DNA of 64,000 nucleotides from Patescibacteria group bacterium (GCA_018823045.1 JAHJIX010000002.1:128846-192845), one strand, 5' to 3'; shown: positions 669 through 55,905, counted from the first letter of the stretch. Program-made: numbers and translations. The notes: generated by a model not told the origin, from the letters alone.

Positions 669-677
669 TCTTCTTTT

Positions 678-1391: not shown

Positions 1392-1403
1392 AATAATCCA
1401 CAC

Positions 1404-1431
1404 TTGCTTTTTTTTCAGTATATTGTATAAT
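1404..1431 (+). promoter_or_regulatory. Promoter of the peroxiredoxin gene (-35 TTGCTT, 16-nt spacer, -10 TATAAT)
   Basis: -35 at 1404-1409 and -10 at 1426-1431, upstream of the start at 1469. Confidence 0.5.
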
Positions 1432-1453
1432 ACATACTATAATAGTATGTATT
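1429..1453. promoter_or_regulatory. Perfect 25-bp palindrome AATACATACTAT-A-ATAGTATGTATT overlapping the -10 element (candidate repressor operator)
   Basis: The 12-bp arms are exact reverse complements. The element overlaps the TATAAT and the likely transcription start of the prx-sod unit. Confidence 0.55.
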
Positions 1454-1468
1454 TAATTTTATCACTAT

Positions 1469-2056: not shown

Positions 2057-2067
2057 TGATTCAATCA

Positions 2068-2100
2068 AGAGAAGCCAATACATCCGCTTCTCTTTTTTCT
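2068..2100 (+). terminator. Hairpin with T-tract between the peroxiredoxin and SOD genes
   Basis: AGAGAAGC-(10 nt)-GCTTCTCT followed by TTTTTTCTT. Confidence 0.5.
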
Positions 2101-2111
2101 TAAAAAATAAT

Positions 2112-2678: not shown

Positions 2679-2690
2679 AAAATACGTAAT

Positions 2691-2722
2691 AAAAAATCAT
2701 CGTAAATACGATGATTTTTTAT
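2691..2722. terminator. Bidirectional terminator between sod (+) and ychF (-)
   Basis: ATCATCGTA-AA-TACGATGAT flanked by A6 and T6 runs. Confidence 0.75.
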
Positions 2723-2746
2723 TAGAAAGATTCTTAAGTATCACTA

Positions 2747-3817: not shown

Positions 3818-3899
3818 AAAGATAATAATTATTTCTGTGTAGCGATTATACCAAAATAGACAAAAAAAGCAACCTAGTATATATCACTGTATATTGCTT

Positions 3900-9800: not shown

Positions 9801-9980
9801 AAAAAACAAGGTGCTCACAGCAAAAACAAAAAATAAAAATATACCAAATATATATGTATATGGTTCAATCTTTTTAAATAATCTTAAAAACGTATCTTTC
9901 ACAGACAGTATTTTAATATGTATGCTCACCAAACAATGAGCCATATATAGTATATCACACTTTGCACTAAAAAAGATCAA
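3900..9980 (-). CDS. Giant (2026 aa) secreted or surface protein with LVIVD-type beta-propeller repeats, tail-fibre-like GNVGINTTSP motifs and an acidic Pro-rich C-terminal tandem tail
   Basis: Single open frame of 6.08 kb. The N-terminus has a signal-peptide-like hydrophobic segment (KKIEPYTYIFGIFLFFVFAVSTLFFSVAQ). Repeated blocks of the form G(N/K)YAY(V/I)... (V/I)(I/V)D(I/V)S(D/N)P (LVIVD-like) occur at least nine times. The motifs GN(V/I)GINT(T/S)SPQY..VDG and TL(T/N)FSH(N/R)A each recur three or more times. The alternative start is the ATG at 9944. Confidence 0.7.
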   Translation of the reverse strand: MIFFSAKCDILYMAHCLVSIHIKILSVKDTFLRLFKKIEPYTYIFGIFLFFVFAVSTLFFSVAQTVTAPPNIITYQGKLLEGGLAVTSTKQMKFVIYDDLSAGTALYTASGTVGTPLAVSITPSSGIFAIDLGDTAYNTLDPQIFAGNSDLFLEVTVGSDILSPRKRLTAAPFAMNARYLNGVGAAVTSTGEYIPISDTNGMFTFMGDPQSSAVDGGTIYINPATADANETLFGIALGGSQRFRVDEDGDVSMLGNVDITGQLAVTGATTLNTTTINDIFTVNATSTFTAPVFVSTTVASGDVFHVRNNGTSQFLIDSNGNIGINTTSPQYRLVVDGSTVINVDNKTYPLDLHYKSDSIFRVGWAGLVEAVDINVSDDVTIDDRLTVSGISSLATTTVTDFTVTGSVTGISVSDLDDGSDLALLSGTQSFTGSNTFTATTTFSSTTIFNATTTFTERVGMFGSISADSVRDSIAHGDGGALLSGPQRVQVVGNYAYVLSNGGVNPTATSTFAIIDVSDPLSLRYIGGISHGDGGADFDDAIDFVVSGHYAYIAGRVNDVMETIDISNPANPQHVSKVYHNASGPLLDKIKAVTQQGKYLYAVSASAKSVEVLDISNPGTPIHAGSFDYTQEPLLTGATDIEVRGKYAYIASAASSAMVILDVSDPTNISSVGTIENGDGGSDLVGADTIRLEGNYAYVGTGSNSLINVIDISNPQLPTFISYFSAGTIDYQVRANRIYEMSLGALPDPLIIISNLNNLNNLDEFGYVVASDFNYLASGVVVEQSAGLQRFDLVGNYMYVTGWKDNSLYVFDISGANIGSAEIGVAEIGSLKVHGDSSFDDGVYINNGLHISNNGLLVGGDIALYTATSSYVATNTLNFSHRALFESGVNSTNTESFIFNTENTLSAGNLISIRNNGTERFVIDESGNVGINTSTPAYGLSVVGTGYVSGEMILANNVYVGNSSEQITTSTFALDGDDMYVHDLLGVGDSLFVENAIHIGTSSLHLSGDVSGGLISMTGGALTLDSSGLLSINTTNNQNVVFGSGNVGINSSSPQYQFAVDGDGYFSGQTTIEDLLYVPGKTSAAEHVTAILDGGASAPYLTGVQDVKVQDNLLYSVSYTENSLEIFNISDPSYPARVGGIVSGSGSTSFATPMALEVAGNYVYIVTDAGNLQVIDISDPSIPAHKGLLDSASFGDLKGIRVRGNYAYIADSVNQKMHVVDVSDPANPILVTSLDLWESAENIEVQGKYAYILTGMGSMAIIDISDPANPAVLCSFMGESEFMGLKSISVRGIYAYVTYTGMAEGAAMAIIDISDPAGFGPNTVGNIKDSDGAAITLDGISGLFVSGDYAYVTAETDDAVVVINIASSTNPTFVDAISVSGDSANLNGPVAITGSGNHLYVASKADNDIEIIDVSGAKIANATIGSAEISRLGVMGQAQFGNGVNIRNGLHIANNGLIVGGDFSLYSNSASATATNTLTFSHNAYFKTNISSSTGPAFIFDTSNGFDTTASTTFLFSVRNNGTSKFSVAGNGDVATVGNFFAASAVMGTPGVPGDLAERVDVDPTEGAEPGDVMIIDPQDVDSYKKSNEAYAQSIAGVVSTQPTIVVGNGKTEFTADMAMVGRVPIKISNENGAVEHGDLLVTASTPGHAMKYDALKDDGTKVVGIIGMALESFDANSSSTGKIMALIKSGWVNNRHQTIAELKQEVLEIAEHDGISLDQSTQEISVAQNDSGQLIAVSQDLNMNGYGIVNVSHITSKDNVWNIDAQGRFITRIATSDGDTDLYALQSQNTEYIFSGSGQLDGGEVRIDFDQVTQDIIDATKSIKVSVTLTDKANGIYVSTKDETGFTVSELLDGTSTSTFDWVVIAERKTDGDIPVEIVDPIIDPQVDPVVEEPVDNPEDSAPVVDVPAEEDPAPVDSEELPAEEPADPISADPVVEEAVDPVVEEPVDNPEDPAPVVDVPAEEDPAPVDSEELPAEEAVDPVVEELAPAQEPAAEPEVVEPPPAPDPAPPAEEPSAPPAESPLAE
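4052..4322. repeat. Two tandem copies of a ~151-bp repeat inside the 3' end of the giant gene
   Basis: A stretch of about 118 bp is near-identical between the two copies (CTGCAGGAAGCTCTTCTGAATCTACTGGTGCCGGATCTTCCTCTGCTGGTACATCTACGACAGGAGCAG...). It encodes the duplicated acidic Pro-rich tail PVVEEPVDNPED(S/P)APVVDVPAEEDPAPVDSEELPAEE. Confidence 0.8.
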
Positions 9981-22745: not shown

Positions 22746-24134
22746 ATGGCATTTATAAAAGATAAAATACTCATGGTATTGTTGCGTGTTCTCGTGCGAG
22801 TAAAACGCGTGATGTTTTGGTTGGCGCGTAATTTGTGGTCAATATTTGGGGTGTTATATGATGTATATGCAAAAACAATAGGTTTCCGTATATATAAAAT
22901 ATTTTTTCTTGTTAAAAAAAAATCACAAAAACATAATATCCCTCTTGATAGTCGTTTTGTTGAGGTGCTTGGACGCCGGGGGTTGTTACAAGTGGGTCTT
23001 TTTGTGTTGTTGGTGATGATCATGATTCCATATAGCACCCTTTATACACAAGAAGTTGGAAACATTCACGGGCGAGACACATTATTATATAAGATTATTG
23101 GTCCGGGTGATCAAAATTTTGGGTATGATGAGATTACTATTGAAGAGGCACATTTTGATCAAACAACTCAAATAGATGCTCCTGCGTGGAAAGAGGGGGC
23201 TGTGGCGGTTGAAACACATGGAACAGTAGGAAAAGAGTCTATAGCGCAGTCACAAGAGCTTGCGGCATTTACTTCTGGTGGGGCAGCAATCACTAAACCA
23301 AATATTTTACCTGGTGTAGATGTTTCTGTTGAAACACCTACAGGAAGTATTAATGGAACGTTGAGAAAATCAGCAATAACCTACACTGTTCAATCAGGAG
23401 ATGTTATTGGAAAAATTGCAGAAAAATTTGGGATTGATGTAAATACTATTTTGTGGGCAAATGATTTAACAGCAAGATCATATATTCGTCCAGGTGATGA
23501 TTTAACTATTTTACCTGAGAATGGTGTAATGCATACCGTAAAATCCGGTGAAACTGTATCAAAAATTGCAAAAGAGTATAATGCAGAGTCAGAAAGTATT
23601 GTTGCATTTAATAAATTACAAAAAGACGGCTCAGATATTGTCATTGGTGAAGAATTGTTTATTCCAGGTGGAGAAAAACGAACAACAGTCATCCGTCCAA
23701 GTTATGTGACAAGACCGAGTACCTTTGCGAGTGTGACAGCTCCACCACCATCTGTATCTGCTCCTGCAGGTTCTGGATTTTTGTGGCCATCACAAGCACG
23801 TATTATTACACAGTATTATGGCTGGCGTCATACAGGGCTTGACATAGGTGGCCCAATTGGAACACCGTTATATGCATCAAAAGCAGGAACTGTTATTAAA
23901 TCTCAGTGTGGGTGGAATGGTGGGTATGGTTGTTATATAATTCTTGATCATGGCGGCGGTGTACAAACATTGTATGCCCATGCTTCTCAACTATATGTGT
24001 CTTTAGGAGAAACGGTAACACAAGGGCAAACTATTGCGGGTATGGGATCGACTGGAAACTCAACAGGACCGCATATCCATTATGAAGTAAGAATTAATGG
24101 ACAAAGAATGAACCCACTTCAATACGTTCGATAA
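22746..24134 (+). CDS. LysM-domain M23 family metallopeptidase
   Basis: Two LysM repeats (YTVQSGDVIGKIAEKFGIDVNTILWANDL and HTVKSGETVSKIAKEYNAESESIVAFNKL). The C-terminal M23 domain carries HTGLDIGGPIGTPLYA and GPHIHYEVRINGQRMNP. Confidence 0.85.
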   Translation: MAFIKDKILMVLLRVLVRVKRVMFWLARNLWSIFGVLYDVYAKTIGFRIYKIFFLVKKKSQKHNIPLDSRFVEVLGRRGLLQVGLFVLLVMIMIPYSTLYTQEVGNIHGRDTLLYKIIGPGDQNFGYDEITIEEAHFDQTTQIDAPAWKEGAVAVETHGTVGKESIAQSQELAAFTSGGAAITKPNILPGVDVSVETPTGSINGTLRKSAITYTVQSGDVIGKIAEKFGIDVNTILWANDLTARSYIRPGDDLTILPENGVMHTVKSGETVSKIAKEYNAESESIVAFNKLQKDGSDIVIGEELFIPGGEKRTTVIRPSYVTRPSTFASVTAPPPSVSAPAGSGFLWPSQARIITQYYGWRHTGLDIGGPIGTPLYASKAGTVIKSQCGWNGGYGCYIILDHGGGVQTLYAHASQLYVSLGETVTQGQTIAGMGSTGNSTGPHIHYEVRINGQRMNPLQYVR

Positions 24135-24166
24135 AAAAAATACCAGTATATACTGGTATTTTTTAT
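24133..24166. terminator. Bidirectional intrinsic terminator (ATACCAGTATA/TATACTGGTAT flanked by A and T runs)
   Basis: An 11-bp perfect stem between the convergent M23 and yifB genes. Confidence 0.75.
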
Positions 24167-25680
24167 GATTTAAGCCTATATTGTAGTGCTTCAGCAATAT
24201 GTGTTGCTTCAATGTGTTCTTTTTGTTCAATATCGGCTATGGTGCGGGCAATTTTTATAATACGATGAAAGCTTCGTGCTGAGAGATACATGTGGCTCAT
24301 GGCTTGGCGCATGATTTGTGTACATGTTTCATCAAGTGCACAAAAGAGTTTTATTTCTTTGTTGCTCATTTCACTGTTGCTAGTGATGTTTGTGTGTTTA
24401 AATCTCTTTTTTTGCATTTGTCTAGCATATTCAACCCGTGTTTGGATTTGTGTAGAGCTTTCTGCAAGTGCATGGTCGGTTAGTTTTTCAAAATCAACGC
24501 GAGGTACTTCTACATGAAGATCAATACGATCAAGAATGGGGCCACTCACTTTTTTTTGGTAGCGAGATATTTGTTGAGCTGAACAAGTACAGGTTTTATC
24601 TGGGTCGCTTGCATAGCCACATGGGCAAGGATTTTGACTGGCAACAAGGGTAAAGCTTGCAGGAAAACAGAGTGTCCCTTGTGCACGAGAAATAGTGACG
24701 ACTCCATCTTCAAGTGGTTGGCGTAAATTTTCTAATACGGTGCGTGGAAATTCAGGGAATTCATCTAAAAATAACACTCCTCTGTGTGCAAGTGATATTT
24801 CTCCTGGTCGAGGAAAGGCGCCTCCGCCGACGAGTGCTACTCCACTTGCGCTATGATGTGGTGTACGAAATGGTCTTGTGGTAATAATAGGTGTTTCTTG
24901 AGGAAGAAGACCTGCAACCGAATAAATTTGGGTAATATCAATTGCTTCTTGTACAGAGAGTTTTGGTAATATGGATGGGAATGTTCTTGCAAGTAGGGTT
25001 TTTCCTGAGCCTGGTGGACCTGAAAGTAAAATGTTATGACCCCCACTGGCGGCAATCTCTAGGGCTCGTTTTGCAAAGTGCTGGCCTTTTATGTGCGCCA
25101 TGTCACCACCATGTGTTGGAAGAGTAATTAACGAGTGAATATCGGTGGTTATTGCTTGGTTGATCATTTTTTCTTCATTGAGATGGTCAATAAGTGCTTT
25201 AAATGAGTGTACAGGGAATATAGATACCCCTTCAATGATCGCAGCTTCGGCGCTATTGATTGCTGGAACAAAGATGCGAGCATATCCTTGTTCTTTGGCA
25301 AAAAGTGCCAGAGGGAGCACTCCATTGCTGTGACGTAGCGCTCCATCTAGCGCGAGCTCCCCAACAAAAAGTGCATCGTCAAGATCAATTTCTTTTTTTG
25401 TTGCGGCGATGTACATGCCAATAGCAATAGGAAGATCATAAGAAGAACCAACCTTTTTTACATTAGCTGGGGCTAAATTAACAATAACGCGACTATTTGA
25501 TGGAAAAGGAATACCTGAATTTTTCCATGCTGTACGAATACGCTCTTTTGCTTCTTGAACTGAGGTGTCGGCAAGCCCAACAATTTGATAGCCTGGCCAA
25601 CTGCCAGCAATGTCTACTTCGACAGTAATTGGTGTACAGTGTATACCAAGTATTGACGCAGAATGTATTTTTGTTACCAT
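24163..25680 (-). CDS. YifB/ComM family Mg-chelatase-like AAA+ ATPase
   Basis: N-terminal Lon-like domain, Walker A GPPGSGKT, Walker B LFLDEFPEF, and a C-terminal ChlI-like region. Confidence 0.85.
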   Translation of the reverse strand: MVTKIHSASILGIHCTPITVEVDIAGSWPGYQIVGLADTSVQEAKERIRTAWKNSGIPFPSNSRVIVNLAPANVKKVGSSYDLPIAIGMYIAATKKEIDLDDALFVGELALDGALRHSNGVLPLALFAKEQGYARIFVPAINSAEAAIIEGVSIFPVHSFKALIDHLNEEKMINQAITTDIHSLITLPTHGGDMAHIKGQHFAKRALEIAASGGHNILLSGPPGSGKTLLARTFPSILPKLSVQEAIDITQIYSVAGLLPQETPIITTRPFRTPHHSASGVALVGGGAFPRPGEISLAHRGVLFLDEFPEFPRTVLENLRQPLEDGVVTISRAQGTLCFPASFTLVASQNPCPCGYASDPDKTCTCSAQQISRYQKKVSGPILDRIDLHVEVPRVDFEKLTDHALAESSTQIQTRVEYARQMQKKRFKHTNITSNSEMSNKEIKLFCALDETCTQIMRQAMSHMYLSARSFHRIIKIARTIADIEQKEHIEATHIAEALQYRLKS

Positions 25681-38598: not shown

Positions 38599-41514
38599 AT
38601 GCCATACAATGCAAACGAACAAGAACAAAAAATAATGGAGTTTTGGAGACAAAACAAAACCTTTGAAAAATCAGTAAACGAAAGAAGTGAGAATAAGCCT
38701 TATGTTTTTTATGATGGGCCTCCTTTTGCTACAGGACTTCCGCATTATGGTCATATATTGGCTTCTGCTATGAAGGATCTTGTCCCACGTTTTTGGACGA
38801 TGAAGGGTTACCGTGTTGAGCGTAAATGGGGTTGGGATTGTCATGGACTTCCTATTGAAAACATTGTAGAAAAAGAACTCAATCTTGGAAGTAAACAAGA
38901 TATAGAAAATTATGGTATAGCAAATTTTAATGAAGCTTGTCGAGGAATGGTTTTGACTTATGCAGAAGAATGGAAAAAGACTATCGAACGAATGGGGCGT
39001 TGGGTTGATATGGAAAATGATTATAAGACCATGGATCTTCCTTTTATGGAGAGTGTTTGGTGGGTGTTTAAAGAGCTTTGGGAAAAAGGATATGTCTATG
39101 AAGGCAAAAAAGCTATGCATATTTGTCCTCGTTGTGTTACTCCGCTTTCTAATTTTGAAGTAACACAGGGGTATAAGGATATCAAAGATATTTCAGCGAC
39201 TGCGCAGTTTAAAGTGCTTGAGGGGAAAGAAAAATTTGATGTAGAAGGGGATCTTTATATCCTTGCTTGGACCACCACTCCATGGACACTTCCTGGAAAT
39301 GTACTTTTGGCAGTTGGGGAGGATATTGAATATTCTCTTGTAAAGTTTGAAGGAAATACTTTTGTTGTTGCAAAAGATCTTTTGATGAAAAATTTTGAAG
39401 AAAAAGAATTCGAGGTGTTATCACAAGTAAAGGGAAGTGATTTTGTTGGGCTCACATATGAACCACTTTTTCCATATTTTGCAGAAACAAAAAATGCTTT
39501 TCGTGTGGTAGCGGCTGATTTTGTAACGACGGAAGACGGAACAGGAATTGTACACATTGCGCCAGCTTTTGGTGAAGACGATTATCGTCTTGGGCGAGAA
39601 GAGGATGTTGATTTTGTCCAGCATGTAGATATGGAAGGAAAGTTTACTTCTGCTGTAATAGATTTTGCAGGAGTGGAAGTAAAGAATAAGGAAGACCATA
39701 TGGCGACGGATATTGAAATCATTCGCTATCTTGCACAGAATGGCAAACTTTTTTCAAAGAAAAAATACGAACATAGTTATCCACATTGTTGGCGTTGTGA
39801 TACTCCGCTTCTTAATTACGCGACCAGTAGCTGGTTTGTAGAAGTTACTAAAATCAAAGAAGAGCTTCTTGAAAATAATAAAAAAATTAATTGGGTTCCT
39901 GATCATATTAAAGATGGACGTTTTGGATTGTGGCTTGAAGGAGCTCGTGATTGGGCAGTTTCTCGTACTCGTTATTGGGGAACTCCACTTCCTATTTGGA
40001 AAAGTGATGATGGAGATACGATTTGTATTGGTTCTGCCGAAGAACTTTCTGAATTATCAGGAAAGGAAGTAAAAGATCTGCACAAACATTTTATCGATGA
40101 TATAGAAATTACAAAGGACGGAAAAGTATACAAACGTATTACGGAAGTTTTTGATTGTTGGTTTGAGTCTGGATCTATGCCATACGGACAAATGCATTAT
40201 CCATTCGAGAATAAAGAAAAATTTGAATCAGGATTTCCAGCTGAGTTTATTGCTGAAGGGCAAGATCAAACACGTGGATGGTTTTATACTTTGCATGTGC
40301 TTGCTACGGCTTTGACCCTTGGGGAAGAATCTTCTATACCAAAGGAATGTAGTCCTGCCTTCAAAAATGTTATTGTGAACGGAATTGTGCAAGCAGAAGA
40401 CGGAAAGAAAATGAGTAAAAAGCTCAAAAATTATCCAGCACCAGAGCTGATCTTTGAAAAGTATGGAGCGGACGCTATGCGATATTATCTCATGGCTTCT
40501 CCTGTGGTGCATGCAGAAGCTTTGGCTTTTTCTGAAGTGGGAGTGAGGGAGGTGTATAATAAGTTGGTGAATACTTTGGTGAATGTTTTAAATTTTTATG
40601 AGATGTTCGCTGTATCACGAGACACGAGACAGGTAACATATACCAATCTTAAATCAGAGAACGTTTTAGATAAATGGATTTTGGCGAAGCTTCAAAATTT
40701 GGTAGAAGAGGTTACGGTAAATATGGAAGAGTATAAGCTTGCGGAAGCTGCTCGTCCTATTATGGAATTTGTGACAGAATTATCACAGTGGTATATTCGT
40801 CGTAGTCGTGAAAGGTTTAAATCAGGAAGCGAAGAGGATAAATCTGCTGCACTTGCAACACTTAGGGAAGTTCTTTTGACTTTATCAAAAGTGATGGCGC
40901 CTTTTACTCCTTTTATTTCTGAACATGTATATCAGGAAGTAAGCGGGCAAAGTGAAAAATCGGTTCATTTAGAAATGTGGCCAGAGCTGAATGAGGAGCT
41001 CAAAAATCCTGAATCGCTTGAAACCATGGAAAGCGTGCGTAAGCTCGTAGAGCTTGGTCTTTCTCTTCGTAAAGAAGTAGGAATTCGTGTGCGTCAGCCA
41101 CTTTTGGCTCTTGGCGTAAACAAAGAACTTGAAGAAGGGTATAAAGTAATTATTGCGGAAGAAATGAATGTGAAGGAAGTTGTTTCTTTATCTGATGCTT
41201 CTGAATGGATGAAGAAGGAAGACAAAGGGCTTGAAGTTGCTCTCAATACAGAAATAACAGAAGAACTCAAGAAAGAAGGACTTTTGCGTGAGGTGGTTCG
41301 TGCGGTGAATCAGATGCGCAAAGAAAAAGGATTCACCAGAGAAGACCGTGTCGTGGTGCACTATAAAGTAGAGGACGAACTTCTCAGTAGTGTCTTTAGT
41401 GATTATGCAGAAGAAATTAAATCATCAGTGCTCGCTGACTCACTTGATGTAGGTGAGGGAGAAGAAGCAAAAGTAGGGGATGTAATGATGCAACTTCAGG
41501 TAGAAAAGAAATAA
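38599..41514 (+). CDS. ileS: Isoleucine--tRNA ligase
   Basis: HIGH-type motif PHYGHIL, KMSKKL (the KMSKS loop), and editing and anticodon-binding domains. Length is about 970 aa. The start is taken at the ATG at 38599. Confidence 0.95.
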   Translation: MPYNANEQEQKIMEFWRQNKTFEKSVNERSENKPYVFYDGPPFATGLPHYGHILASAMKDLVPRFWTMKGYRVERKWGWDCHGLPIENIVEKELNLGSKQDIENYGIANFNEACRGMVLTYAEEWKKTIERMGRWVDMENDYKTMDLPFMESVWWVFKELWEKGYVYEGKKAMHICPRCVTPLSNFEVTQGYKDIKDISATAQFKVLEGKEKFDVEGDLYILAWTTTPWTLPGNVLLAVGEDIEYSLVKFEGNTFVVAKDLLMKNFEEKEFEVLSQVKGSDFVGLTYEPLFPYFAETKNAFRVVAADFVTTEDGTGIVHIAPAFGEDDYRLGREEDVDFVQHVDMEGKFTSAVIDFAGVEVKNKEDHMATDIEIIRYLAQNGKLFSKKKYEHSYPHCWRCDTPLLNYATSSWFVEVTKIKEELLENNKKINWVPDHIKDGRFGLWLEGARDWAVSRTRYWGTPLPIWKSDDGDTICIGSAEELSELSGKEVKDLHKHFIDDIEITKDGKVYKRITEVFDCWFESGSMPYGQMHYPFENKEKFESGFPAEFIAEGQDQTRGWFYTLHVLATALTLGEESSIPKECSPAFKNVIVNGIVQAEDGKKMSKKLKNYPAPELIFEKYGADAMRYYLMASPVVHAEALAFSEVGVREVYNKLVNTLVNVLNFYEMFAVSRDTRQVTYTNLKSENVLDKWILAKLQNLVEEVTVNMEEYKLAEAARPIMEFVTELSQWYIRRSRERFKSGSEEDKSAALATLREVLLTLSKVMAPFTPFISEHVYQEVSGQSEKSVHLEMWPELNEELKNPESLETMESVRKLVELGLSLRKEVGIRVRQPLLALGVNKELEEGYKVIIAEEMNVKEVVSLSDASEWMKKEDKGLEVALNTEITEELKKEGLLREVVRAVNQMRKEKGFTREDRVVVHYKVEDELLSSVFSDYAEEIKSSVLADSLDVGEGEEAKVGDVMMQLQVEKK

Positions 41515-41530
41515 AGATATTTTTTTTAGA

Positions 41531-41565
41531 AAAAGAGGAATGTTTGTATAAGCATTCCTCTTTTG
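41531..41565 (+). terminator. Intrinsic terminator after ileS (AAAGAGGAATG...CATTCCTCTTTT)
   Basis: An 11-bp stem followed by a T-rich tract. Confidence 0.75.
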
Positions 41566-41815
41566 ACAAAGTAAGAATATTTGCGTACACTTAGGTTACA
41601 CATTATTAAATATTGTATGATTAAAATAATGCCTAAATTTTTTTATAAGCTTGGATAGTACTTTTTTCTTGTTATGAAAAAATATTCAAAAAAGAAGATA
41701 TTTTTTTAGAGAGTTTTATTAAAGATATTGAAAAAGCTCGTAAAGATGTTTGTCAGGGGCGAGTGTATTCATTTGATCAAGTTATAAAAGAGTTAGGATT
41801 ATAAAATAAAATTAT

Positions 41816-43300
41816 ATGAATAGTACAGTGAAAATAAGTAGAAGTAAAAAAGAACAAGCAGTGGTATATTTTTTATATGAAGACAAATTAAAAGAATTAT
41901 CTTTATTAGAAAAAAAAGAACAAGATGCTGTAAAAACAGTACTTAAAACAAAAGATTTTGAAGGAAAAAATGGACAGATTTCTTTATTATATGTTGGAGA
42001 GAAACGTTTGTTCATTGTTGGTCTGGGGAAAAGAAAAGAATGCAATATTCGTCATTGGAAACAAGCGGTAGGCTCTGTTCTTATGCAAGCACAAAAGAAA
42101 AAAATAACGCAAATAAGTATGCTGATATCAAAAATAGTTTCTTCTTATGTTGATACAGATCTATTTGCACAAACGGGGACTGTTTCTGCGTATAATGCAC
42201 TGTATGCCTTTGACGATTTTAAAGAAAAAGAGGCAAAGGTTGTTGCGGTAAAAAGTATTGAGTGGATTGTTGCAGATAAAAGGATCAGTAATTTATTTAT
42301 AAAAGGAGTTAAAAAGGGAAAATATATTGCAGAAGGCGTTTTATTTACACGTATGCTTGGTAATACGCCACCGACAGAAATGACACCAACTCTTTTGGCT
42401 GATCATGCAAAAGATTTAGAAAAAAACAAAAATATATCAGTGCAAATATTAAACAAAAAACAGATTGAAGCAAAAAAAATGGGTTGTTTGCTTGCTGTGT
42501 CACGTGGGTCTGTTCTTGAGCCAAAATTTATTATTGTTGAATATAAAGGAAAGGATAGTAAACACCCAACAGTGCTTGTTGGAAAAGGAATTACTTATGA
42601 TTCTGGTGGTCTTTCATTAAAACCTGATCCATACATGCGCGACATGAAATTTGATATGTTAGGAGCTGCAACTGTATTGGGGATTATAAAAGCGGCCGCA
42701 AAGATGGGTTTAAAAAAACATATTATTGGGCTTATTCCTGCATGTGAAAATATGCCGAGTGGAGATGCGTATCGACCAGATGATATATTAACTGCAATGA
42801 ATGGTAAAACAGTTTTAATTGAAAATACTGATGCAGAAGGTCGACTAATTCTTGCTGACGCACTTGTGTATGCACAAACACTTCAACCAAAAGAAGTTAT
42901 TGATTTTGCTACACTTACTGGAGCATGTATGGTTGCATTAGGGAATGAGCGATCAGGATTGTTTACTCCAGAAGATGATTTGGCTGATAAATTAGACGCT
43001 GCATCAAAAAATATTGGAGAAATGTTATGGCGTTTGCCAGTGGGGGAAGAATATACAACAGCAATGAAATCTGAAATTGCAGATATTAAAAATCTAGGCG
43101 GTGTAGGTAATCCTCGTTTTGGTGGTGCGTCAACAGCTGCGGCATTTTTACAATTTTTTACACAAAATGAAAAAGGTAATGCATATCCATGGGCACACAT
43201 TGATTTATCTTCTTGTTATTATGGCGAAAGTGGTAAAGCTCACATTCGTGGTGGCGCAAATGGTTTTGGTGTAGAAACGATGATACAATATTTTTCTTAA
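41816..43300 (+). CDS. pepA: Leucyl aminopeptidase (M17 family)
   Basis: M17 signature NTDAEGRL, metal ligands VGKGITYDSGG and IPACENM. Confidence 0.9.
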   Translation: MNSTVKISRSKKEQAVVYFLYEDKLKELSLLEKKEQDAVKTVLKTKDFEGKNGQISLLYVGEKRLFIVGLGKRKECNIRHWKQAVGSVLMQAQKKKITQISMLISKIVSSYVDTDLFAQTGTVSAYNALYAFDDFKEKEAKVVAVKSIEWIVADKRISNLFIKGVKKGKYIAEGVLFTRMLGNTPPTEMTPTLLADHAKDLEKNKNISVQILNKKQIEAKKMGCLLAVSRGSVLEPKFIIVEYKGKDSKHPTVLVGKGITYDSGGLSLKPDPYMRDMKFDMLGAATVLGIIKAAAKMGLKKHIIGLIPACENMPSGDAYRPDDILTAMNGKTVLIENTDAEGRLILADALVYAQTLQPKEVIDFATLTGACMVALGNERSGLFTPEDDLADKLDAASKNIGEMLWRLPVGEEYTTAMKSEIADIKNLGGVGNPRFGGASTAAAFLQFFTQNEKGNAYPWAHIDLSSCYYGESGKAHIRGGANGFGVETMIQYFS

Positions 43301-49050: not shown

Positions 49051-49080
49051 AAAAACTCCCGTGAAAATGGGAGTTTTTAT
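49051..49080 (+). terminator. Intrinsic terminator after the S1 gene (AAAAACTCCC-GTGAAAAT-GGGAGTTTTT)
   Basis: A perfect 10-bp stem including the flanking A and T runs. Confidence 0.8.
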
Positions 49081-49146
49081 GTTGACTTTTGTTTTATTTT
49101 GGTATATGGTGTATAAGGATCTTTTACAACATAGAGGAGAATACAA

Positions 49147-49791
49147 ATGGAGATGCAAATTAGTTGCTTCGGCAGCAGTGAAAAAGCCCCAAATGCACTT
49201 CCCGCACCACCAAGACTTAGGACCCTTGTCAGTCTGAGTTGTGGAATTTCTTCACAAGAATTTTTGCAAACAATTCAGAATTTGGGTGTGCAACAAATCT
49301 GGGACATTCGTTTGACTCCGACATATGTGTCACGTTTCAAAAGACCAGATTACGGAAGTGATCAACAATTGTTTAGGGAAATGTGTACGCAAATGTCGGT
49401 TGAATATAGGCATGTTCCTATATTTGCTCCGACACAAGAAATGCGCCATGCATTTAATCGTGCAACAGAAAATTCTGATACTCGTTTAGGTGCATGGACA
49501 AGTTACCTTGAAGATTTAGAAGTCTTGATGCAAGAAAGGAGGGCTATTACTTTAAGTCAAGAAGGGCTTAATCAAGCGCCAGAAGTCGTTGCTGCTGTTT
49601 GTTCTTGTCACTATCATGATGATTGTCACAGGAGCTATGTCACAGCAATGTTACATCACTACATACAAGGAGTATACATACATGTTGTAGACCCTAATAA
49701 GGAAAAACGTCGCCCAAAGTATCCACGAAGATGGCGTCAGCATGATTTCCCAATGGTGGGACTGCTGGCAAATGCACCACAAAAGAGCTGA
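49147..49791 (+). CDS. DUF488 family protein (island gene A)
   Basis: The pattern (signature left column; letters in brackets are in the DUF488 consensus but not this ORF): I-S-C-F-G-S-S ... S-S-Q-E-F-L ... L-G-V-Q-Q-I-W-D-I-R ... P-(S)-(R) ... Y ... V-E-Y-R-H ... V-C-S-C-H ... D-D-C-H-R matches my recollection of the DUF488 signature (I-x-T-x-G-x-S...EEF...L...GI..L.DVR..P.S...Y.H...CxCAE...CHR). A Shine-Dalgarno sequence AGGAGA lies 8 nt upstream. GC appears higher than in the flanks. Confidence 0.55.
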   Translation: MEMQISCFGSSEKAPNALPAPPRLRTLVSLSCGISSQEFLQTIQNLGVQQIWDIRLTPTYVSRFKRPDYGSDQQLFREMCTQMSVEYRHVPIFAPTQEMRHAFNRATENSDTRLGAWTSYLEDLEVLMQERRAITLSQEGLNQAPEVVAAVCSCHYHDDCHRSYVTAMLHHYIQGVYIHVVDPNKEKRRPKYPRRWRQHDFPMVGLLANAPQKS

Positions 49792-49802
49792 GGAGAATAC
49801 TC

Positions 49803-50504
49803 TTGCTAGTTGACACGTACGCTTTGATTTTATCTGAGACAATAATTGGTGGTGATCATTTTTGTACCAATTGTCTCATTAAAGAGGGTGAAAACTATCG
49901 GCAAATTCGGCTTAGAAGTGCTGGTAATAATCATCTAGCATATCACATGCTGCCTTCACAGGCACGGAGGCACTGGAAAATGGGGCAAGTTATAATACTT
50001 CCTCCATTTAAGAAGCCAAGTAATTGGTTTTGGCGAGGAACTCATCCAGAAGATGTGATTGTAGAACCAAGAAAAATAAAGGCTGTAAATCTTCATAGAG
50101 ACCCTGATGGGGATCGTTTTCTTGGATTAATAGAGCCATTTACATACCAAAGTCTTGAGGCTCTATATCCAGAACACATAAAAGATGGAGGAAGTATATA
50201 TTACCCAGCTGATGCGATTTTAGAGCGATCTGTTGGGTATGTCCGACTCCCATCTGTTTCTATACGTAGAAACGATTGGGGAAAACTGCGAGCGCGCGTA
50301 GAGATAACTTCTCCTCGTCGATCACTATCAAGGATATATGATTTTTCTATCGTTGGTAAAGATCTGCGCAATAGGGTTGAGTCAGGCGACATTCGTATAG
50401 GGAGCACATTTGAGAATGTGCTGTGTCGGTTGAGTCTTGCTGGACCGTATGCACAACAAAGAAACCAGTGTTACGTAATGCTTAGCCACATTCATGGCGT
50501 CTAG
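49803..50504 (+). CDS. Hypothetical protein (island gene B), probable TTG start
   Basis: A 233-aa ORF with GAGGAGAA 6 nt upstream of a TTG. It is probably co-transcribed with gene A. No family was recognised. Confidence 0.4.
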   Translation: MLVDTYALILSETIIGGDHFCTNCLIKEGENYRQIRLRSAGNNHLAYHMLPSQARRHWKMGQVIILPPFKKPSNWFWRGTHPEDVIVEPRKIKAVNLHRDPDGDRFLGLIEPFTYQSLEALYPEHIKDGGSIYYPADAILERSVGYVRLPSVSIRRNDWGKLRARVEITSPRRSLSRIYDFSIVGKDLRNRVESGDIRIGSTFENVLCRLSLAGPYAQQRNQCYVMLSHIHGV

Positions 50505-50523
50505 TGTAATGTGATACTGACCG

Positions 50524-50566
50524 AAAAAAGCTACCCTTGTGATCTGGAGGATTACAAGGGTTTTTT
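50524..50566 (+). terminator. Intrinsic terminator after island gene B (ACCCTTGT...ACAAGGGT followed by T6)
   Basis: An 8-bp stem with a 13-nt loop, followed by TTTTTT. Confidence 0.7.
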
Positions 50567-50597
50567 AATATAAAAGTACTCTATCAACAGGCTCTCA

Positions 50598-50626
50598 TTG
50601 ACAGGAGTTATTTTTTCATATATAGT
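50598..50626 (+). promoter_or_regulatory. Sigma-70-like promoter for island gene C (TTGACA, 17-nt spacer, TATAGT)
   Basis: Consensus -35 at 50598-50603, a 17-nt spacer, and -10 TATAGT at 50621-50626. Confidence 0.5.
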
Positions 50627-50697
50627 AATTAGTTAGTAGAGAGCATATAATGATGTATGCTGTCTTAAAAACGCCCGTAACCTACAACTAAACCGAA

Positions 50698-51366
50698 ATG
50701 TCCTTGGAGGGGAAAATGGAAGCTATCCTTTATGTATTTGCGAGCGGGTTGCTCCAACAAAGCGAAGGTGTTCTCTCCTTTTTTGGGGGTGGAACATTCG
50801 TTTCTGTCGATGATGTCTGTGCTCACTTGTTTTCCTTAGGAAGACAAATGGGTAAAAAGATAAATACTAATTTTTTCAAAATTACAAAGGGTTCTTTGTT
50901 GCTCTTGGATGTGGATAATCAAGAAGCCGGATTTATTTGCCCTCGTTTGAGGGAGAGTAAATTAGAGTTTTTTTCTTTTTTGGAATTGTTTAATTGGTGG
51001 GGTAGTTTGAGAAATAGATTTGAGTTCGTCATAAGAGATTATGGTGGGCTTAATTCTCATTTTACCTATATTCTCGATAGAGAGGGAAGAGGTGAAATAT
51101 TTTCAAACACCCATATACAGTATAAGGGGCTTGCAAGGGGAATAGGAGAAAGGACGGTATGTATTCTTTCTCCAAATTCTCAATTACATCAGCATGCGGA
51201 GGTCGATGACACGCCGCGTCGTCTTGACCCACCAGAGGGAGAGCTTAATATAGGTATAAGAATCTCTCTTTGGCTTATTAAGCCCGGACAGGGCTTAAGG
51301 GTGGGGGAGAGGATAGTTCTCCGCAATGTTGGCGGGGAATTGCAAGAGGAGCGTTTTGCTTTGTAA
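50698..51366 (+). CDS. Hypothetical protein (island gene C)
   Basis: A 222-aa ORF with its own promoter and a downstream terminator at 51368-51399. No family was recognised. Confidence 0.4.
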   Translation: MSLEGKMEAILYVFASGLLQQSEGVLSFFGGGTFVSVDDVCAHLFSLGRQMGKKINTNFFKITKGSLLLLDVDNQEAGFICPRLRESKLEFFSFLELFNWWGSLRNRFEFVIRDYGGLNSHFTYILDREGRGEIFSNTHIQYKGLARGIGERTVCILSPNSQLHQHAEVDDTPRRLDPPEGELNIGIRISLWLIKPGQGLRVGERIVLRNVGGELQEERFAL

Positions 51367-51367
51367 T

Positions 51368-51399
51368 GGCGCAGTCTGGGGGACTGCGTCTATTTTTTT
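51368..51399 (+). terminator. Intrinsic terminator after island gene C
   Basis: GGCGCAGTC-TGGGG-GACTGCGTC followed by TATTTTTTT. Confidence 0.65.
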
Positions 51400-51469
51400 A
51401 GGTACTGAGACATTGACAAATACCCACTTTTTTGGCTATACTATGCAAACATATGTTTATGTATAATTA

Positions 51470-53327: not shown

Positions 53328-53358
53328 AAAAAAATCCCCAGAAGGGGATTTTTTTATA
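53328..53358. terminator. Bidirectional intrinsic terminator (AATCCCC-AGAA-GGGGATT flanked by A7 and T7)
   Basis: Lies between convergent ftsH and the 53354..54349 gene. Confidence 0.8.
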
Positions 53359-54349
53359 TACTGCGTTGTAAAGGTATTTCTTCCGTTCGTGCCATGCTTA
53401 TGGCAGTTAATGGTCTTGTGTCACTTGTTTGATCTACTAATTTTATTTGTATTGAACCAAACTGATCTTTTGTCAATTTAAATGTTGAAATTTGATTAGG
53501 TAAGTCTATTGCTAATATTGGGGGATTTATGTCGTGAGTAGGAGCTGTATTAAAAAAGAAATCTTTTCCTTTTTCATCTGTTAGTTTTATACTATGTATA
53601 AATTTTCCCTCAGTACCTCGGTATCGCCGAGCAACATCTTGTAGAGATGCATCTTGCAGACCATAACCATGAGCAATTAGTTGATCCATGAGTATCGGAT
53701 TTTCTTCAATAAATCTTCGTTGGGCTGCTTCTTTAAGTGATATTGCTTTAAGTTCTTGTTTGCCATTCTCTTTTGTTATGACTTTGTGTAATCCAAATCC
53801 TGAATTTTTTGGATCTCCTGTGAAAGAAACAGGTGTCGGTGTATCTGTTTCTTTGTAAAAAAGAGCTGCTTCGCCTGTTTCAGGATTTTTACTGTGTGCT
53901 AGTGTTAAATATCTTTTTGTATATGTTCCCTTTTCAAATAATGCATCAATTTCATCTGCTGTCGCTACAATAAATCCATCTTCTATCATTGCTTCTGTTC
54001 GTTCACGATGTCCTGCATCACCTTTTTCTCCCATTTCTATTAATCGTTTTTTTCCATCTTTTTGTAACTCTACTTTATAATGTTCTGTTGTATAAAGAGT
54101 TGAATCTAAAAAAGTAGGTACTTCTTCAGTATTTTTATTGGTATAATATAAAAATGTTTCTCCGTTGTTTAAAGTGATAACAGTTACATACGAAGAATAA
54201 ATATCAATAGACCCTTTCGTTTTGTAAAGATCAATTGTTTCTTGTGGAATTGGGAGATAACCACCTTCCTTTAACTGTGTTATTTCTTGAGATAAATTTT
54301 CTGATTCAGTGGGCGAAAAATTTGGGGGATACAATTCTACTGCTAGCAT
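53354..54349 (-). CDS. Hypothetical cytoplasmic protein made of about three copies of an unrecognised ~80-aa repeat (paralog 1)
   Basis: No signal peptide. The modules contain ...G(Y/F)...Y.T...L...GE..LFYKETD.P... and are shared with the adjacent 486-aa protein. Confidence 0.5.
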   Translation of the reverse strand: MLAVELYPPNFSPTESENLSQEITQLKEGGYLPIPQETIDLYKTKGSIDIYSSYVTVITLNNGETFLYYTNKNTEEVPTFLDSTLYTTEHYKVELQKDGKKRLIEMGEKGDAGHRERTEAMIEDGFIVATADEIDALFEKGTYTKRYLTLAHSKNPETGEAALFYKETDTPTPVSFTGDPKNSGFGLHKVITKENGKQELKAISLKEAAQRRFIEENPILMDQLIAHGYGLQDASLQDVARRYRGTEGKFIHSIKLTDEKGKDFFFNTAPTHDINPPILAIDLPNQISTFKLTKDQFGSIQIKLVDQTSDTRPLTAISMARTEEIPLQRSI

Positions 54350-54444: not shown

Positions 54445-55905
54445 TTATGAGCTTGTGTGTGGAATGAGTTCTTGTTTCCCATCGATATTCTGTATTCGAT
54501 AAATATCACATTCAAAATCTTGATAATTTGTACCATCTAAAAAATCAATTTCTTCTGGATTATCAGTGTTTTTATAAAAAAGAAGACTTCTGTTATTTGT
54601 GGTATCAAGAAGTGTTACTTTGGTCAAATATGGTTTATTGAAACTTTTTGATGTAAGACGTTGATGTAGTGTGGGAGTATCTGTTAAAATAAAATTATGA
54701 TCAAGCATCAATTGCAATCTTTGCTCATGTGCATTTTGTTTTATTTCTTTATTTTCTCCCATTATATCAACAGGAATTAAATGGTAGGGGGCAAGATTAT
54801 CCATTTCTCGAAAGATCCCTTTGTGTGCTACCATCTTATTATCTTCTCGTCTTAATACTTTAGCTTCTTTTCTGCTTTCTTTTTCACTCTGTATCTGTTC
54901 TGCTCGTGTGGGAGGGATTACTTTGAAAAATTGGATAAACGATGAGATTGTTTTTTCTGGATATTTAGGAATATCAGGATTATCAGCATCTGTACCTTTG
55001 AGAAATATGTAGGTTTGTTCTGTTGTTGGGTCAATCATGCGGACAGTGGTCACGAATGTATATCCTACAAATTGACCACCTTGCTTTATCATTTGATTAA
55101 ACGTATTTACTGGAATAGAAATATATCCTTGAGCATGCATTTCATTAATAATATGGCTGATTTCACTTAGTTCTTCTTTTTCCCAACCATGTTCTGTTTG
55201 ATGAACGGGGATTGTGTAAGTTGCTGGGTCATCATCTGTTGGCTTTTCAATAAGGTATGTTTTGATCAAATAATTATCTTCATCGAGGGTATCGTTTGAA
55301 TTTAAAAAGTTAGGTAGTTCAGGTGCTCTTTCATTTCTTTTTGTAAAAAATAGATGTGGTTTTTTGATTTCAACAATGGTCAAGTATGTTGTATTTGGGA
55401 GAGAACCAGCTGTCCATTTATTTATAATGTGTTGTGTCGTTATGTTCCACCCTTGTGATTCAAATTTTTTATTTATTTCTTGTGCAGCTGGCTCCAACAT
55501 TTCTTCTGTGAGAAGAATCATATTTCTTTTAAGTCCTAACTCATCTTCAGGCTTAATAATATAATGATTGGTAGTATATGAAATATGTTGTGAGAGGTCA
55601 GTTGTATCTAGAAAATTTGGTGTATTTGATAACTCTGTTCCTTGTTTTACAAAAACCATTTTTGGTTCTTCTATTATGATAGTAGTAATATATGCTATAT
55701 CTGGTGGGTTTTCTGTAAGCCATTTATTGACTGTGTTTTGTGTAGTCATTCTCCATCCTTCTTTTGTAAATTTTTTTATCAATTCTTTCTTTATTTCAAG
55801 TTCAGTCGGTTCCTTCTCAGCTGGTTCAAATACTTCTTTTGGAAGCGGTGGCATAGCTGGAGGAAGTTCTGATTTTGGTGTCGGACGAAGTTCAGATATA
55901 GACAT
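54445..55905 (-). CDS. Hypothetical cytoplasmic protein made of about four copies of the same ~80-aa repeat (paralog 2)
   Basis: Contains the pair KEGWRMTTQNTVNKWLTENPPDIAYITTIIIEEPKMVFVKQGTELSNTPNFLDTTD and SQGWNITTQHIINKWTAGSLPNTTYLTIVEIKKPHLFFTKRNERAPELPNFLNSND. A C-terminal copy has LLFYKNTDNPEEIDFLDGT. The N-terminal 40 aa are Pro/Glu-rich. Confidence 0.5.
   Translation of the reverse strand: MSISELRPTPKSELPPAMPPLPKEVFEPAEKEPTELEIKKELIKKFTKEGWRMTTQNTVNKWLTENPPDIAYITTIIIEEPKMVFVKQGTELSNTPNFLDTTDLSQHISYTTNHYIIKPEDELGLKRNMILLTEEMLEPAAQEINKKFESQGWNITTQHIINKWTAGSLPNTTYLTIVEIKKPHLFFTKRNERAPELPNFLNSNDTLDEDNYLIKTYLIEKPTDDDPATYTIPVHQTEHGWEKEELSEISHIINEMHAQGYISIPVNTFNQMIKQGGQFVGYTFVTTVRMIDPTTEQTYIFLKGTDADNPDIPKYPEKTISSFIQFFKVIPPTRAEQIQSEKESRKEAKVLRREDNKMVAHKGIFREMDNLAPYHLIPVDIMGENKEIKQNAHEQRLQLMLDHNFILTDTPTLHQRLTSKSFNKPYLTKVTLLDTTNNRSLLFYKNTDNPEEIDFLDGTNYQDFECDIYRIQNIDGKQELIPHTSS

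Follow-up and report, generated by a model that had tools for sequence, protein, structure and literature searches.

Why should three genes of deviating composition separate S1 from ftsH in a genome of the Magasanikbacteria (Patescibacteria), and do they constitute one system? A sequence-only reading of the 64,000-nucleotide stretch of DNA analysed here (the window) had taken them for a horizontally acquired three-gene cassette, and for a candidate undescribed system. Its three plus-strand open reading frames (genes A, B and C; Table 1) were confirmed, as were the strong terminators at both edges and between B and C, all of which stand out against shuffled sequences, and the near-consensus promoter of C. 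The view of a single cassette had to be abandoned, however, since A and B form a conserved pair and C lies beside no other A-B pair, and that of an undescribed system fell with the finding that Pfam already has families into which, or beside which, A and B fall (DUF488/DUF488-N3a and DuOB). On balance we consider it fairly likely that the insert combines a divergent DUF488-N3a/DuOB pair, forming a nucleic-acid-end module, with an independent orphan gene C; the assignment of the pair draws on the constant adjacency of A and B and on the family matches of their relatives.

Table 1. Features of the insert and its borders, in window coordinates.
Feature	Position	Strand	Remarks
Hairpin terminator of the S1 gene / left edge of the insert	49051..49080	.	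-19.2 kcal/mol, z = -7.8 vs shuffles
Candidate A-B operon promoter, TTGACT-17-TATGGT	49082..49110	+	9/12 positions, weak consensus match
RBS of A: GAGGAGAATAC, 2 nt, ATG	49134..49144	+	same 11-mer and geometry at B
Gene A, 214 aa	49147..49791	+	DUF488 domain; predicted catalytic subunit
RBS of B: GAGGAGAATAC, 2 nt, TTG	49790..49800	+	overlaps the TGA stop of A (49789-49791)
Gene B, 233 aa, TTG start	49803..50504	+	divergent DuOB; predicted nucleic-acid-binding partner of A
Intrinsic terminator of the A-B operon	50533..50567 (hairpin 50533-50561)	+	-18.1 kcal/mol, z = -4.9
Gene C promoter, TTGACA-17-TATAGT	50598..50626	+	11/12 positions
Gene C, orphan ORF, 222 aa	50698..51366	+	outside the conserved A-B module
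Intrinsic terminator of C / right edge of the insert	51368..51399 (hairpin 51368-51390)	+	-16.0 kcal/mol, z = -5.4
ftsH promoter	51413-51442		3' of the right edge of the insert

The insert is accessory and was acquired horizontally, as the sequence-only reading had proposed, because S1 and ftsH are neighbours in related genomes and the same site holds different cargo in others. At least 12 relatives have the two genes side by side, 14-260 bp apart (loci L008, L009, L011, L014, L016, L018, L026, L029, L032, L042, L046 and L047), and in 50 of 50 related S1 loci none of A, B and C is present at the S1-ftsH site; L001 and L002 match the window with 100% identity. A RelB/YafQ toxin-antitoxin pair occupies the gap in relative L021, and a Bro-N protein or other cargo is found there in further relatives, marking the S1-ftsH junction of Magasanikbacteria as a place where accessory genes land repeatedly. 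The insert brings its own transcription signals. Searches around it for flanking repeats gave only short matches of chance length, no tRNA adjoins it (the nearest is 17 kb off), no integrase or mobility gene was found within it, and an Rfam scan of the region returned sub-threshold chance matches only.

Composition, codon usage and Arg/Lys usage of all three genes are foreign to the host. With regard to GC content, which had been estimated by eye at 45% against 35% in the flanks, the shift itself stood (a 2.3-kb segment at the insert lies at the 99th percentile) but its size did not: the insert has about 41% GC versus 36.5% for the whole window, a difference of 5-6 points that is mild for A and B, and two other regions of the window (about 3100-6200 and 23050-25400) have equally high GC. 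The individual values are 42.2% for A, 41.9% for B and 41.6% for C, compared with 35.4% for S1 and 36.1% for ftsH. At third codon positions only C is a clear outlier (GC3 of 0.39, against a mean of 0.25 with an sd of 0.05), the shift of A (0.31) and B (0.30) being modest, and C has both the highest GC3 and the highest codon bias of the 48 ORFs. The anticipated codon deviation was nevertheless borne out for all three genes, which are the lowest three of these 48 ORFs in log-likelihood under the window's codon model. Furthermore, A, B and C are Arg-rich, with Arg/Lys ratios of 2-3, versus 0.5 in the Lys-rich housekeeping proteins of the host.

A and B are translationally coupled within one operon, with 11 nt between them in the window. 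The Shine-Dalgarno sequence of B over the stop codon of A, and the TTG start, were both upheld. It is this ribosome-binding geometry, shared with A down to the same 11-mer, that supports TTG 49803 as the start of B rather than the annotated TTG 49824 (226 aa); in annotation the start codon should probably be moved, and B labelled a DuOB-family protein instead of hypothetical. The terminator at the left edge of the insert is palindromic, and could act both ways as it has an A-run before and a T-run after it. For gene C the likely start is ATG 50716 (216 aa), with GGAGG at 50706-50710, 5 nt before it.

Gene A was recognised as a DUF488 protein, matching Pfam DUF488 (PF04343) at 39.8 bits (cut-off 22.2, E=8e-10), with a domain that spans residues 37-168 and aligns to positions 3-120 of the 121 in the model. 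Its CSCHYHDDCHR cluster, which the sequence-only reading had placed at the end of the protein, is indeed present at residues 152-162 but is followed by a conserved, family-specific basic tail of ~45 aa with a PRR motif. Seven residues of the cluster are invariant in the A family, and A retains all 21 residues that are invariant among itself and six relatives, including D53, R55, C152, C154, H157, D159, C160, H161 and R162; the D-x-R and C...C-H-R motifs of DUF488 are both present. The best-matching subclade is DUF488-N3a (PF22751), with a score under its cut-off of 27 bits for A itself (21.8 bits, E=2.4e-4), 19.6 to 26.6 bits for the relatives of A, and a precomputed match at E<=1e-5 for the relative in L058. 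Among the PADLOC models A matches PDC-M45C (E=8e-13) and PDC-M19A (E=1e-6), and a PDB profile search with the A family gave nothing significant. From these motifs and scores we predict A to be an enzyme that falls, within the rhodanese-phosphatase superfamily, into the DUF488 branch and there close to DUF488-N3a.

The sequence-only reading had seen no recognisable family in B or C, which proved right for C, and for B only as far as direct scans go. Direct scans of B against Pfam, NCBIfam, PADLOC and PHROG assigned no family, and word-indexed homologue searches with A, B and C returned self matches only. For B this reflects a limit of sensitivity and not true orphan status: with E<1e-3 as the limit, an exhaustive HMMER search recovered 55 full-length homologues, of which 28 had E-values under 1e-10 and the closest reached 6e-22. 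The family is rare (55 representatives in 1.84 billion), and its three named members come from Magasanikbacteria. PF22557 (DuOB, "Dual OB-containing domain") was matched by 20 of the 48 aligned relatives of B, with a best E of 6.7e-8, and the members in L057 (29.6 bits) and L058 (29.0 bits) lie over its 27-bit cut-off; the window's own B had no direct match at E<=1. Membership in DUF488-N3a and DuOB therefore rests on transitive homology, A and B of the window being below the specific Pfam cut-offs. The THPED motif is invariant in the B family, the full set of invariant polar residues being R, T-H-P-E-D, C, S-x-G-Y, R and C, and B keeps all invariant columns, including R, H-P-E-D and G. A single-sequence AlphaFold2 model of B has a pLDDT of 41, which is too low to establish its fold; it displays an OB-like strand pattern with weak fold matches, mostly to OB folds, and in the better modelled C-terminal half the elements follow the order beta1-3/helix/beta4-5. 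A PDB profile search with the B family gave nothing significant and found no solved relative by sequence, a PADLOC scan of 48 family members returned nothing, and no matches were found for B in phage and plasmid collections or for A and B in viral contigs. We regard B as a divergent DuOB-family protein, and predict it to be a nucleic-acid binder.

The linkage of the two genes is obligate in our sample, a B relative lying directly 3' of an A relative in 14 of the 14 loci with enough upstream sequence. Nine of these were found via B homologues (L053, L054-L056, L057, L058, L059, L061 and L062), each with an A homologue directly upstream at a spacing ranging from a 4-bp overlap to a gap of 2-9 nt, and five new ones were found via an A-specific pattern. 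This pattern led to six loci, all with a B match directly downstream (cut by the contig end in L065 and L068), one of which (L064) probably coincides with L057, hence the count of five. Two shorter fragments show the same arrangement: in L063 a DUF488 gene lies 3 nt upstream of the B relative, and in L060 a partial A-like ORF (E=9e-7) is found upstream. A 415-aa protein (P0041) considered as an A-B fusion was rejected, because a TGA that separates the two ORFs in frame had been translated as Trp; the seven other genes of its contig are free of in-frame TGA codons. As P0041 is an artefact, a physical interaction of A with B gains no support from fusion.

The A-B pair is also mobile, occupying varied sites in related genomes, usually with foreign composition, and diverging faster than its flanks. 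In SI053_bin23, the MAG of a relative, the pair is found at a different locus between dtd and an aminoacyl-tRNA synthetase (aaRS) gene; elsewhere the gene 3' of the pair is S16, TP_methylase or a class II aaRS, and one pair is found in an organism of 62% GC beside MarR and tannase genes. GC3 of the pair versus that of its host was 0.43 versus 0.18-0.26, 0.73 and 0.60 versus 0.27-0.41, 0.57 versus 0.36, and about 0.62-0.63 versus 0.94. L059 and L061 share 69% identity in the flanking aaRS, compared with 41% in A and 34% in B, and the pair evolves several-fold faster than neighbouring genes. So far as taxonomy is known its hosts are mostly Patescibacteria. A co-occurrence with defence islands, which had been proposed as a point to check, was not seen, with no known defence gene adjoining A-B in any sampled context.

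Gene C is in a different position, and we consider it an independent orphan because it is without a detectable relative and is absent beside other A-B pairs. No relative was found in homologue, metagenome-contig, viral-contig, phage or plasmid searches, and no family match in Pfam, NCBIfam, PADLOC or PHROG; no C-like gene stands beside A-B in any of the 14 loci, and hhalign comparison of C with the A and B family profiles showed no relation. A third gene upstream of A-B in L062 is unrelated both to C and to A. That A, B and C nonetheless act as one three-component system, for instance in defence or conflict with C as effector, sensor or immunity protein, seems very unlikely to us. The three are contiguous on the same strand, are bounded by strong terminators and share foreign codon usage and an Arg-rich composition, and both the PADLOC matches of A and the rapid divergence and sporadic distribution of A-B would fit such a system; however, a terminator parts C from A-B, C has its own promoter, the gene following A-B varies elsewhere, the PADLOC models are unmatched by B, C and the B family, and neither defence genes beside the sampled pairs nor phage, plasmid or viral-contig matches were found. 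We also think it unlikely that C is non-functional, either a decaying remnant or a spurious ORF. Such an origin would account for the failure of every search to find a homologue, for a codon usage that deviates more than that of any other ORF in the window and GC1/GC2/GC3 values that are flat (0.49/0.37/0.39), and for a single-sequence AlphaFold2 model that is unconfident throughout (pLDDT 33), but not for an open frame of 216-222 codons in DNA of 41% GC, where the longest shadow ORF of the 64-kb window has 163 aa, nor for a frame that outscores the other five under the codon model and is equipped with a promoter, a well-spaced GGAGG and a strong terminator right after its stop.

Three further readings concern the A-B pair itself. 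The recurrence of translation genes around it (S1 and ftsH in the window, S16 in L057, TypA/BipA in L069, RRF-dtd and a class II aaRS in L059, L061 and L062, and an aaRS two genes off in L058), a dtd-[A-B]-aaRS position common to three diverged lineages, and the purifying selection implied by the retention of all invariant residues in A and B might indicate a vertically inherited housekeeping function in RNA or translation, such as end repair or maturation of tRNA or rRNA, whose position has been shuffled. We find this improbable, given the rarity of the family, its absence from the S1-ftsH site in all 50 related loci, its outlying GC3 in the majority of hosts, even where the dtd-aaRS position is shared, its 34-41% identity against 69% for the flanking gene, and its presence in the 62% GC organism; in small Patescibacteria genomes, moreover, translation-gene neighbours are to be expected by chance. 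A toxin-antitoxin or addiction-type selfish module, the least probable of the readings considered, would be consistent with a tightly coupled two-gene operon that is sporadic, mobile and fast-diverging, and with the RelB/YafQ pair held by L021 in the same gap, yet A, B and C match no toxin or antitoxin family in Pfam, NCBIfam or PADLOC, A and B lack a DNA-binding antitoxin domain, both exceed the usual size of type II components, and their invariant polar residues are enzyme-like or ligand-binding. Although speculative, one could also think of A-B as a mobile module that serves small-genome Patescibacteria in conflict or defence, in which B is itself catalytic and with A would act on invading nucleic acids by modifying or cleaving their ends, C being a lineage-specific accessory (effector or immunity protein). 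The invariant R...T-H-P-E-D...S-x-G-Y...R...C would then form a new OB-fold active site, for which staphylococcal nuclease offers an analogy as an OB-fold enzyme; we give this reading a small chance only.

Returning to the favoured reading, of a divergent DUF488-N3a/DuOB pair with an independent orphan beside it, A-B is probably a nucleic-acid-end-processing module. The OB folds of B would bind a single-stranded nucleic-acid substrate or terminus and present it to A, which would remove or transfer a terminal phosphate or sugar-phosphate group, so that the two together might process or modify nucleic-acid ends; in this sense we infer their physical interaction, substrate, chemistry and biological role. 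Burroughs and Aravind reportedly defined a RapZ-C/DUF488/DUF4326 clade in 2023, with predicted roles in DNA-end processing. Gene C would then be a lineage-specific orphan, equipped with a promoter, a ribosome-binding site and a terminator of its own, that landed in this variable gap between S1 and ftsH as well, its source probably being likewise GC-richer. In a related context, a role in the processing of terminal ribose phosphates has been proposed for the DUF4326 clade (PMC9503650), and in archaeal plasmids a DUF488 protein occurs in a replication/repair neighbourhood (PMC9674854). For the DUF488-N3a/DuOB pair Pfam models exist and its function is only predicted; the locus of the window and the 14 others now document obligate linkage, movement between genomes and fast evolution. 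The invariant residues give targets for mutation, in a two-protein system for a predicted end chemistry within the rhodanese-phosphatase superfamily.

How does the pair compare with known systems? PDC-M45 and PDC-M19, phage-defence candidates proposed from 'guilt-by-embedding' (bioRxiv 10.1101/2024.01.29.577857), resemble it at the domain level only, through their DUF488 components; their other components are absent here, B, C and the B family match no PADLOC model, and A-B is not embedded in a BREX, DISARM or type I restriction-modification system. The single-stranded DNA-binding proteins with two OB units (Thermus/Deinococcus SSB, POT1, PriB) are comparable to B in so far as its beta-rich pattern, in a low-confidence model, fits two such units. 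B has no sequence similarity to them, however, and its invariant polar residues are atypical of passive ssDNA binders. Generic DUF488 proteins (PF04343, e.g. the single-domain E. coli YeaO type) share with A a score above the Pfam cut-off as well as D-x-R and C...CHR, but A differs in its extra Cys/His-rich motif C-x-C-x2-H-x-D-C-H-R, its conserved basic tail and its obligate DuOB partner. In relation to the DUF488-N3a/DuOB pair, the window's A and B (below the cut-off and without a direct match, respectively) represent a divergent, rare branch, and no inactive DUF488 paralogue is present at the window locus, C being unrelated to A by profile comparison. What unites them with that pair is an architecture in which a DUF488-type enzyme is encoded directly upstream of, and tightly coupled with, a co-oriented dual-OB protein of ~230 aa, relatives of A that match DUF488-N3a and relatives of B that match DuOB, some above cut-off, and a conserved Cys/His/Arg cluster that A has kept.

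The three plus-strand ORFs that the sequence-only reading had placed between the S1 gene and ftsH were recovered at the same coordinates in our ORF listing, as were strong terminators on either side and internally, with an equally stable fold in none of 200 shuffles for each hairpin, and a near-consensus promoter belonging to C. The Shine-Dalgarno of B overlaps the TGA stop of A, and an identical 11-mer precedes the ATG of A and a TTG at 49803 in the same geometry, so we favour this TTG as the start of B; the arrangement also supports the translational coupling of A and B that had been proposed. The deposited start of B is TTG 49824, 21 nt downstream (226 aa), and the repeated geometry suggests that this annotation is 7 codons too short. 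For C the second ATG (50716), with GGAGG 5 nt ahead of it, is probably the true start, and the corresponding 216-aa version was picked by one gene caller.

Features of the inserted segment (window positions) and of comparison loci fetched from other genomes (L handles, positions within each locus)
Feature	Position	Strand	Details
Gene A	49147-49791	+	214 aa ORF
Gene B	49803-50504	+	233 aa ORF, TTG start
Gene C	50698-51366	+	222 aa ORF
Terminator hairpin, S1 side	49051-49078		pattern scan; RNA fold -19.2 kcal/mol, z = -7.8
Terminator hairpin between B and C	50533-50561		pattern scan; RNA fold -18.1 kcal/mol, z = -4.9
Terminator hairpin after C	51368-51390		pattern scan; RNA fold -16.0 kcal/mol, z = -5.4
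Promoter-like site ahead of A	49082-49110		pattern scan, 9/12 positions
Promoter-like site ahead of C	50598-50626		pattern scan, TTGACA-17-TATAGT, 11/12 positions
Promoter-like site of ftsH	51413-51442		pattern scan, 11/12 positions
11-mer GAGGAGAATAC before A	49134-49144		exactly 2 nt before ATG
11-mer GAGGAGAATAC before B	49790-49800		identical; exactly 2 nt before TTG
S1-ftsH gap cargo, L021	7422-8035		RelB/YafQ toxin-antitoxin pair
S1-ftsH gap cargo, L017	7249-7593		Bro-N protein
S1-ftsH gap cargo, L004	7806-8264		HTH protein
S1-ftsH gap cargo, L024	7122-10077		large secreted-looking protein(s)
S1-ftsH gap cargo, L028	844-5016		large secreted-looking protein(s)
A-B pair, L057	4321-5750		between SMC and S16; GC3 outlier
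A-B pair, L058			after penicillin-binding protein
A-B pair, L059	4363-5711		between dtd and class II aminoacyl-tRNA synthetase; GC3 outlier
A-B pair, L061	106-1470		between dtd and class II aminoacyl-tRNA synthetase; GC3 outlier
A-B pair, L062			between dtd and class II aminoacyl-tRNA synthetase
A-B pair, L069			adjoining TypA/BipA
A-B pair, L055	4229-5577		adjoining MarR and tannase genes, 62% GC organism; GC3 outlier

GC content reaches 42.2, 41.9 and 41.6% in A, B and C, compared with 35.4% in S1, 36.1% in ftsH and 36.5% across the window, and the 2.3-kb segment at the insert lies in the 99th percentile of the window. The deviation noted earlier is thus present, but its size (45% against 35%) had been put too generously, the values being about 42% against 35-36.5%. 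Equal GC richness (about 41%) is seen at about 3100-6200 and 23050-25400, most of one of these regions being contained in a 2026-aa minus-strand ORF (3900-9980); a GC trough of 23.6% occupies 41500-41999, between an ORF ending at 41514 and another starting at 41816. GC3, the value at third codon positions, averages 0.25 (sd 0.05) across 48 ORFs; the three genes stand at 0.31, 0.30 and 0.39, which makes only C a strong outlier in GC3 and codon bias. With a codon model trained on the remaining ORFs, per-codon likelihood was lower in A, B and C than in any other of the 48, although each scored best in its own frame, and Arg is 2-3 times as frequent as Lys in their proteins, whereas Lys is twice as frequent as Arg in host housekeeping proteins. 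Because codon likelihood and Arg/Lys usage deviate in all three genes while the GC shift is smaller, the compositional anomaly is real, if milder than first stated.

The deposited A, B and C proteins are assigned to "Patescibacteria group bacterium", and the closest S1 matches are Candidatus Magasanikbacteria MAGs at no more than 83% identity. Among 50 loci fetched via the S1 protein, with neighbouring genes placed by tblastn, the order gyrA, metallo-beta-lactamase-fold gene, S1, ftsH is kept across Magasanikbacteria and other Patescibacteria. S1 directly adjoins ftsH in at least 12 of them (gap about 14-260 bp), ftsH has been relocated entirely away from S1 in the five closest relatives, and tblastn found relatives of A, B or C in none of the 50. 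Judging by the differing cargoes (Table), unrelated accessory genes have landed repeatedly in the S1-ftsH gap of Magasanikbacteria. Given the adjacency in relatives, the absence of A, B and C and the differing cargo, the junction is variable and the 2.4-kb segment is an insertion; its absence from all 50 loci, together with foreign codon and Arg usage, supports the suggested horizontal acquisition. The insert is not marked by an integrase, a tRNA or any flanking repeat of note.

In L017 the gyrA match (530-4186) is interrupted for about 1.1 kb, and in L049 ftsH matches in three pieces over 4.5 kb (5356-9825); these breaks may reflect inteins or insertions in the housekeeping genes of these other Patescibacteria. 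Downstream of ftsH in the window, two adjacent minus-strand hypothetical proteins (53354-54349 and 54445-55905) are distant paralogues of low GC3 with a repeated module of ~100-150 aa (several BLASTP segments, best E=3e-7) and no Pfam family.

As proposed in the sequence-only reading, A belongs to DUF488, scoring well above the Pfam cut-off; with the subclade model DUF488-N3a it reaches 21.8 bits, below the 27-bit cut-off. In PADLOC, A further hits the DUF488 component of each of two candidate systems, PDC-M45 and PDC-M19, which are themselves untested and were derived by "guilt-by-embedding" (bioRxiv 10.1101/2024.01.29.577857). Aligned with six relatives from other loci, A retains all 21 invariant residues, among them D53, R55, P95-T96, R100, W117 and the expected Cys/His cluster (C152-x-C154-x2-H157-x-D159-C160-H161-R162), as well as an invariant P-R-R motif in its basic C-terminal tail beyond the Pfam domain. 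B had been described as lacking a recognisable family, and this holds for direct Pfam, NCBIfam, PADLOC and PHROGs scans and for a word-indexed protein search, which returned only B itself, but not for an exhaustive HMMER search, which found 55 relatives at E<1e-3 (28 below 1e-10), nearly all of 210-250 aa and aligning over their full length at 25-37% identity. R29, H74-P75-E76-D77 and G138 are invariant and C14, W51, G54, R71, T73, S136, Y139, R202, L205 and C216 near-invariant in the 48-member family alignment, and B carries every one of them. Polar residues are thus conserved in both proteins. PADLOC models contained no match to the B family, nor did phage/plasmid collections and viral contigs to the A-B family.

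The linkage of A and B is obligate. At nine loci found through B homologues (L053, L054-L056, L057, L058, L059, L061, L062) an A homologue lies immediately upstream on the same strand, with a 4 bp overlap or a 2-9 nt gap, and the short fragments L060 and L063 agree with this order. Conversely, a B match lies immediately downstream in all six loci found through an A-specific peptide pattern; two of these are short contigs ending within the B match, and L064 probably duplicates the site of L057. An apparent A-B fusion, the public protein P0041 (415 aa, L053:1416-2663), was rejected as two genes joined across an in-frame TGA taken for Trp, a codon that occurs in frame in none of the contig's other genes; called as one DUF488-containing gene, it is a translation artefact and was therefore left out of the linkage evidence.

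The pair occupies varied sites (Table), and since L062 and the S1 locus L013 come from the same MAG, a close relative lacks A-B after S1 but carries it at another site. The pair stands out from most of its hosts in GC3 (0.43 against 0.18-0.26; 0.73 and 0.60 against 0.27-0.41; 0.57 against 0.36; about 0.62-0.63 against 0.94 in a high-GC host), departing upward in low-GC hosts and downward in the high-GC one, even at the dtd-synthetase site common to several lineages. Between two genomes with A-B at that site the synthetase is 69% identical, A 41% and B 34%. None of the sampled pairs had a defence gene beside it. One lineage of Magasanikbacteria has a further gene (207-236 aa; L062:3413-4123, L063:26-649) just upstream of A-B, with only weak helix-hairpin-helix hints (E about 0.1) and no relation to C or A.

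C had no relative in the word-indexed protein database, PDB sequences, 3,400 ORFs of the fetched loci, metagenome contigs, viral contigs or phage records, and no match in Pfam, NCBIfam, PADLOC or PHROG; profile comparison linked it to neither the A nor the B family, and its predicted structure has a pLDDT of 33. Its open frame is longer than every shadow ORF of the window and the best of six by codon score, and with its near-consensus promoter, ribosome-binding site and tight terminator C is probably a real gene. As with A and B, its high Arg content suggests that it came from a source richer in GC.

Nucleic-acid binding is a general property of OB folds, and DNA-end processing was reportedly predicted for the DUF488/DUF4326 clade by Burroughs and Aravind in 2023. 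In the proposed mechanism, single-stranded nucleic acid or its termini would be bound by the predicted OB folds of B and handed to A, whose D-x-R and Cys/His/Arg site would work on a terminal phosphate or sugar-phosphate. Besides the OB folds, this proposal draws on the sister clade DUF4326, for which processing of terminal phosphates on ribose has been proposed (PMC9503650), and on archaeal plasmids that place a DUF488 protein in a neighbourhood of replication/repair genes (PMC9674854). The biological role may lie in conflict and defence, in repair, or in an RNA- or translation-linked task. The mobility and fast divergence of the pair point to conflict or accessory functions, and the recurring translation-gene neighbours speak for an RNA-linked task, although in genomes this small chance alone would be expected to produce them.

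The observations of the sequence-only reading were largely right. The proposal of an undescribed three-gene system was not borne out, the A and B domains already having Pfam models and C, as far as these searches indicate, being an orphan unrelated to them. Family comparison makes A-B a rare and divergent representative of a gene pair for which Pfam domain models exist (DUF488-N3a and DuOB) and whose function is only predicted.
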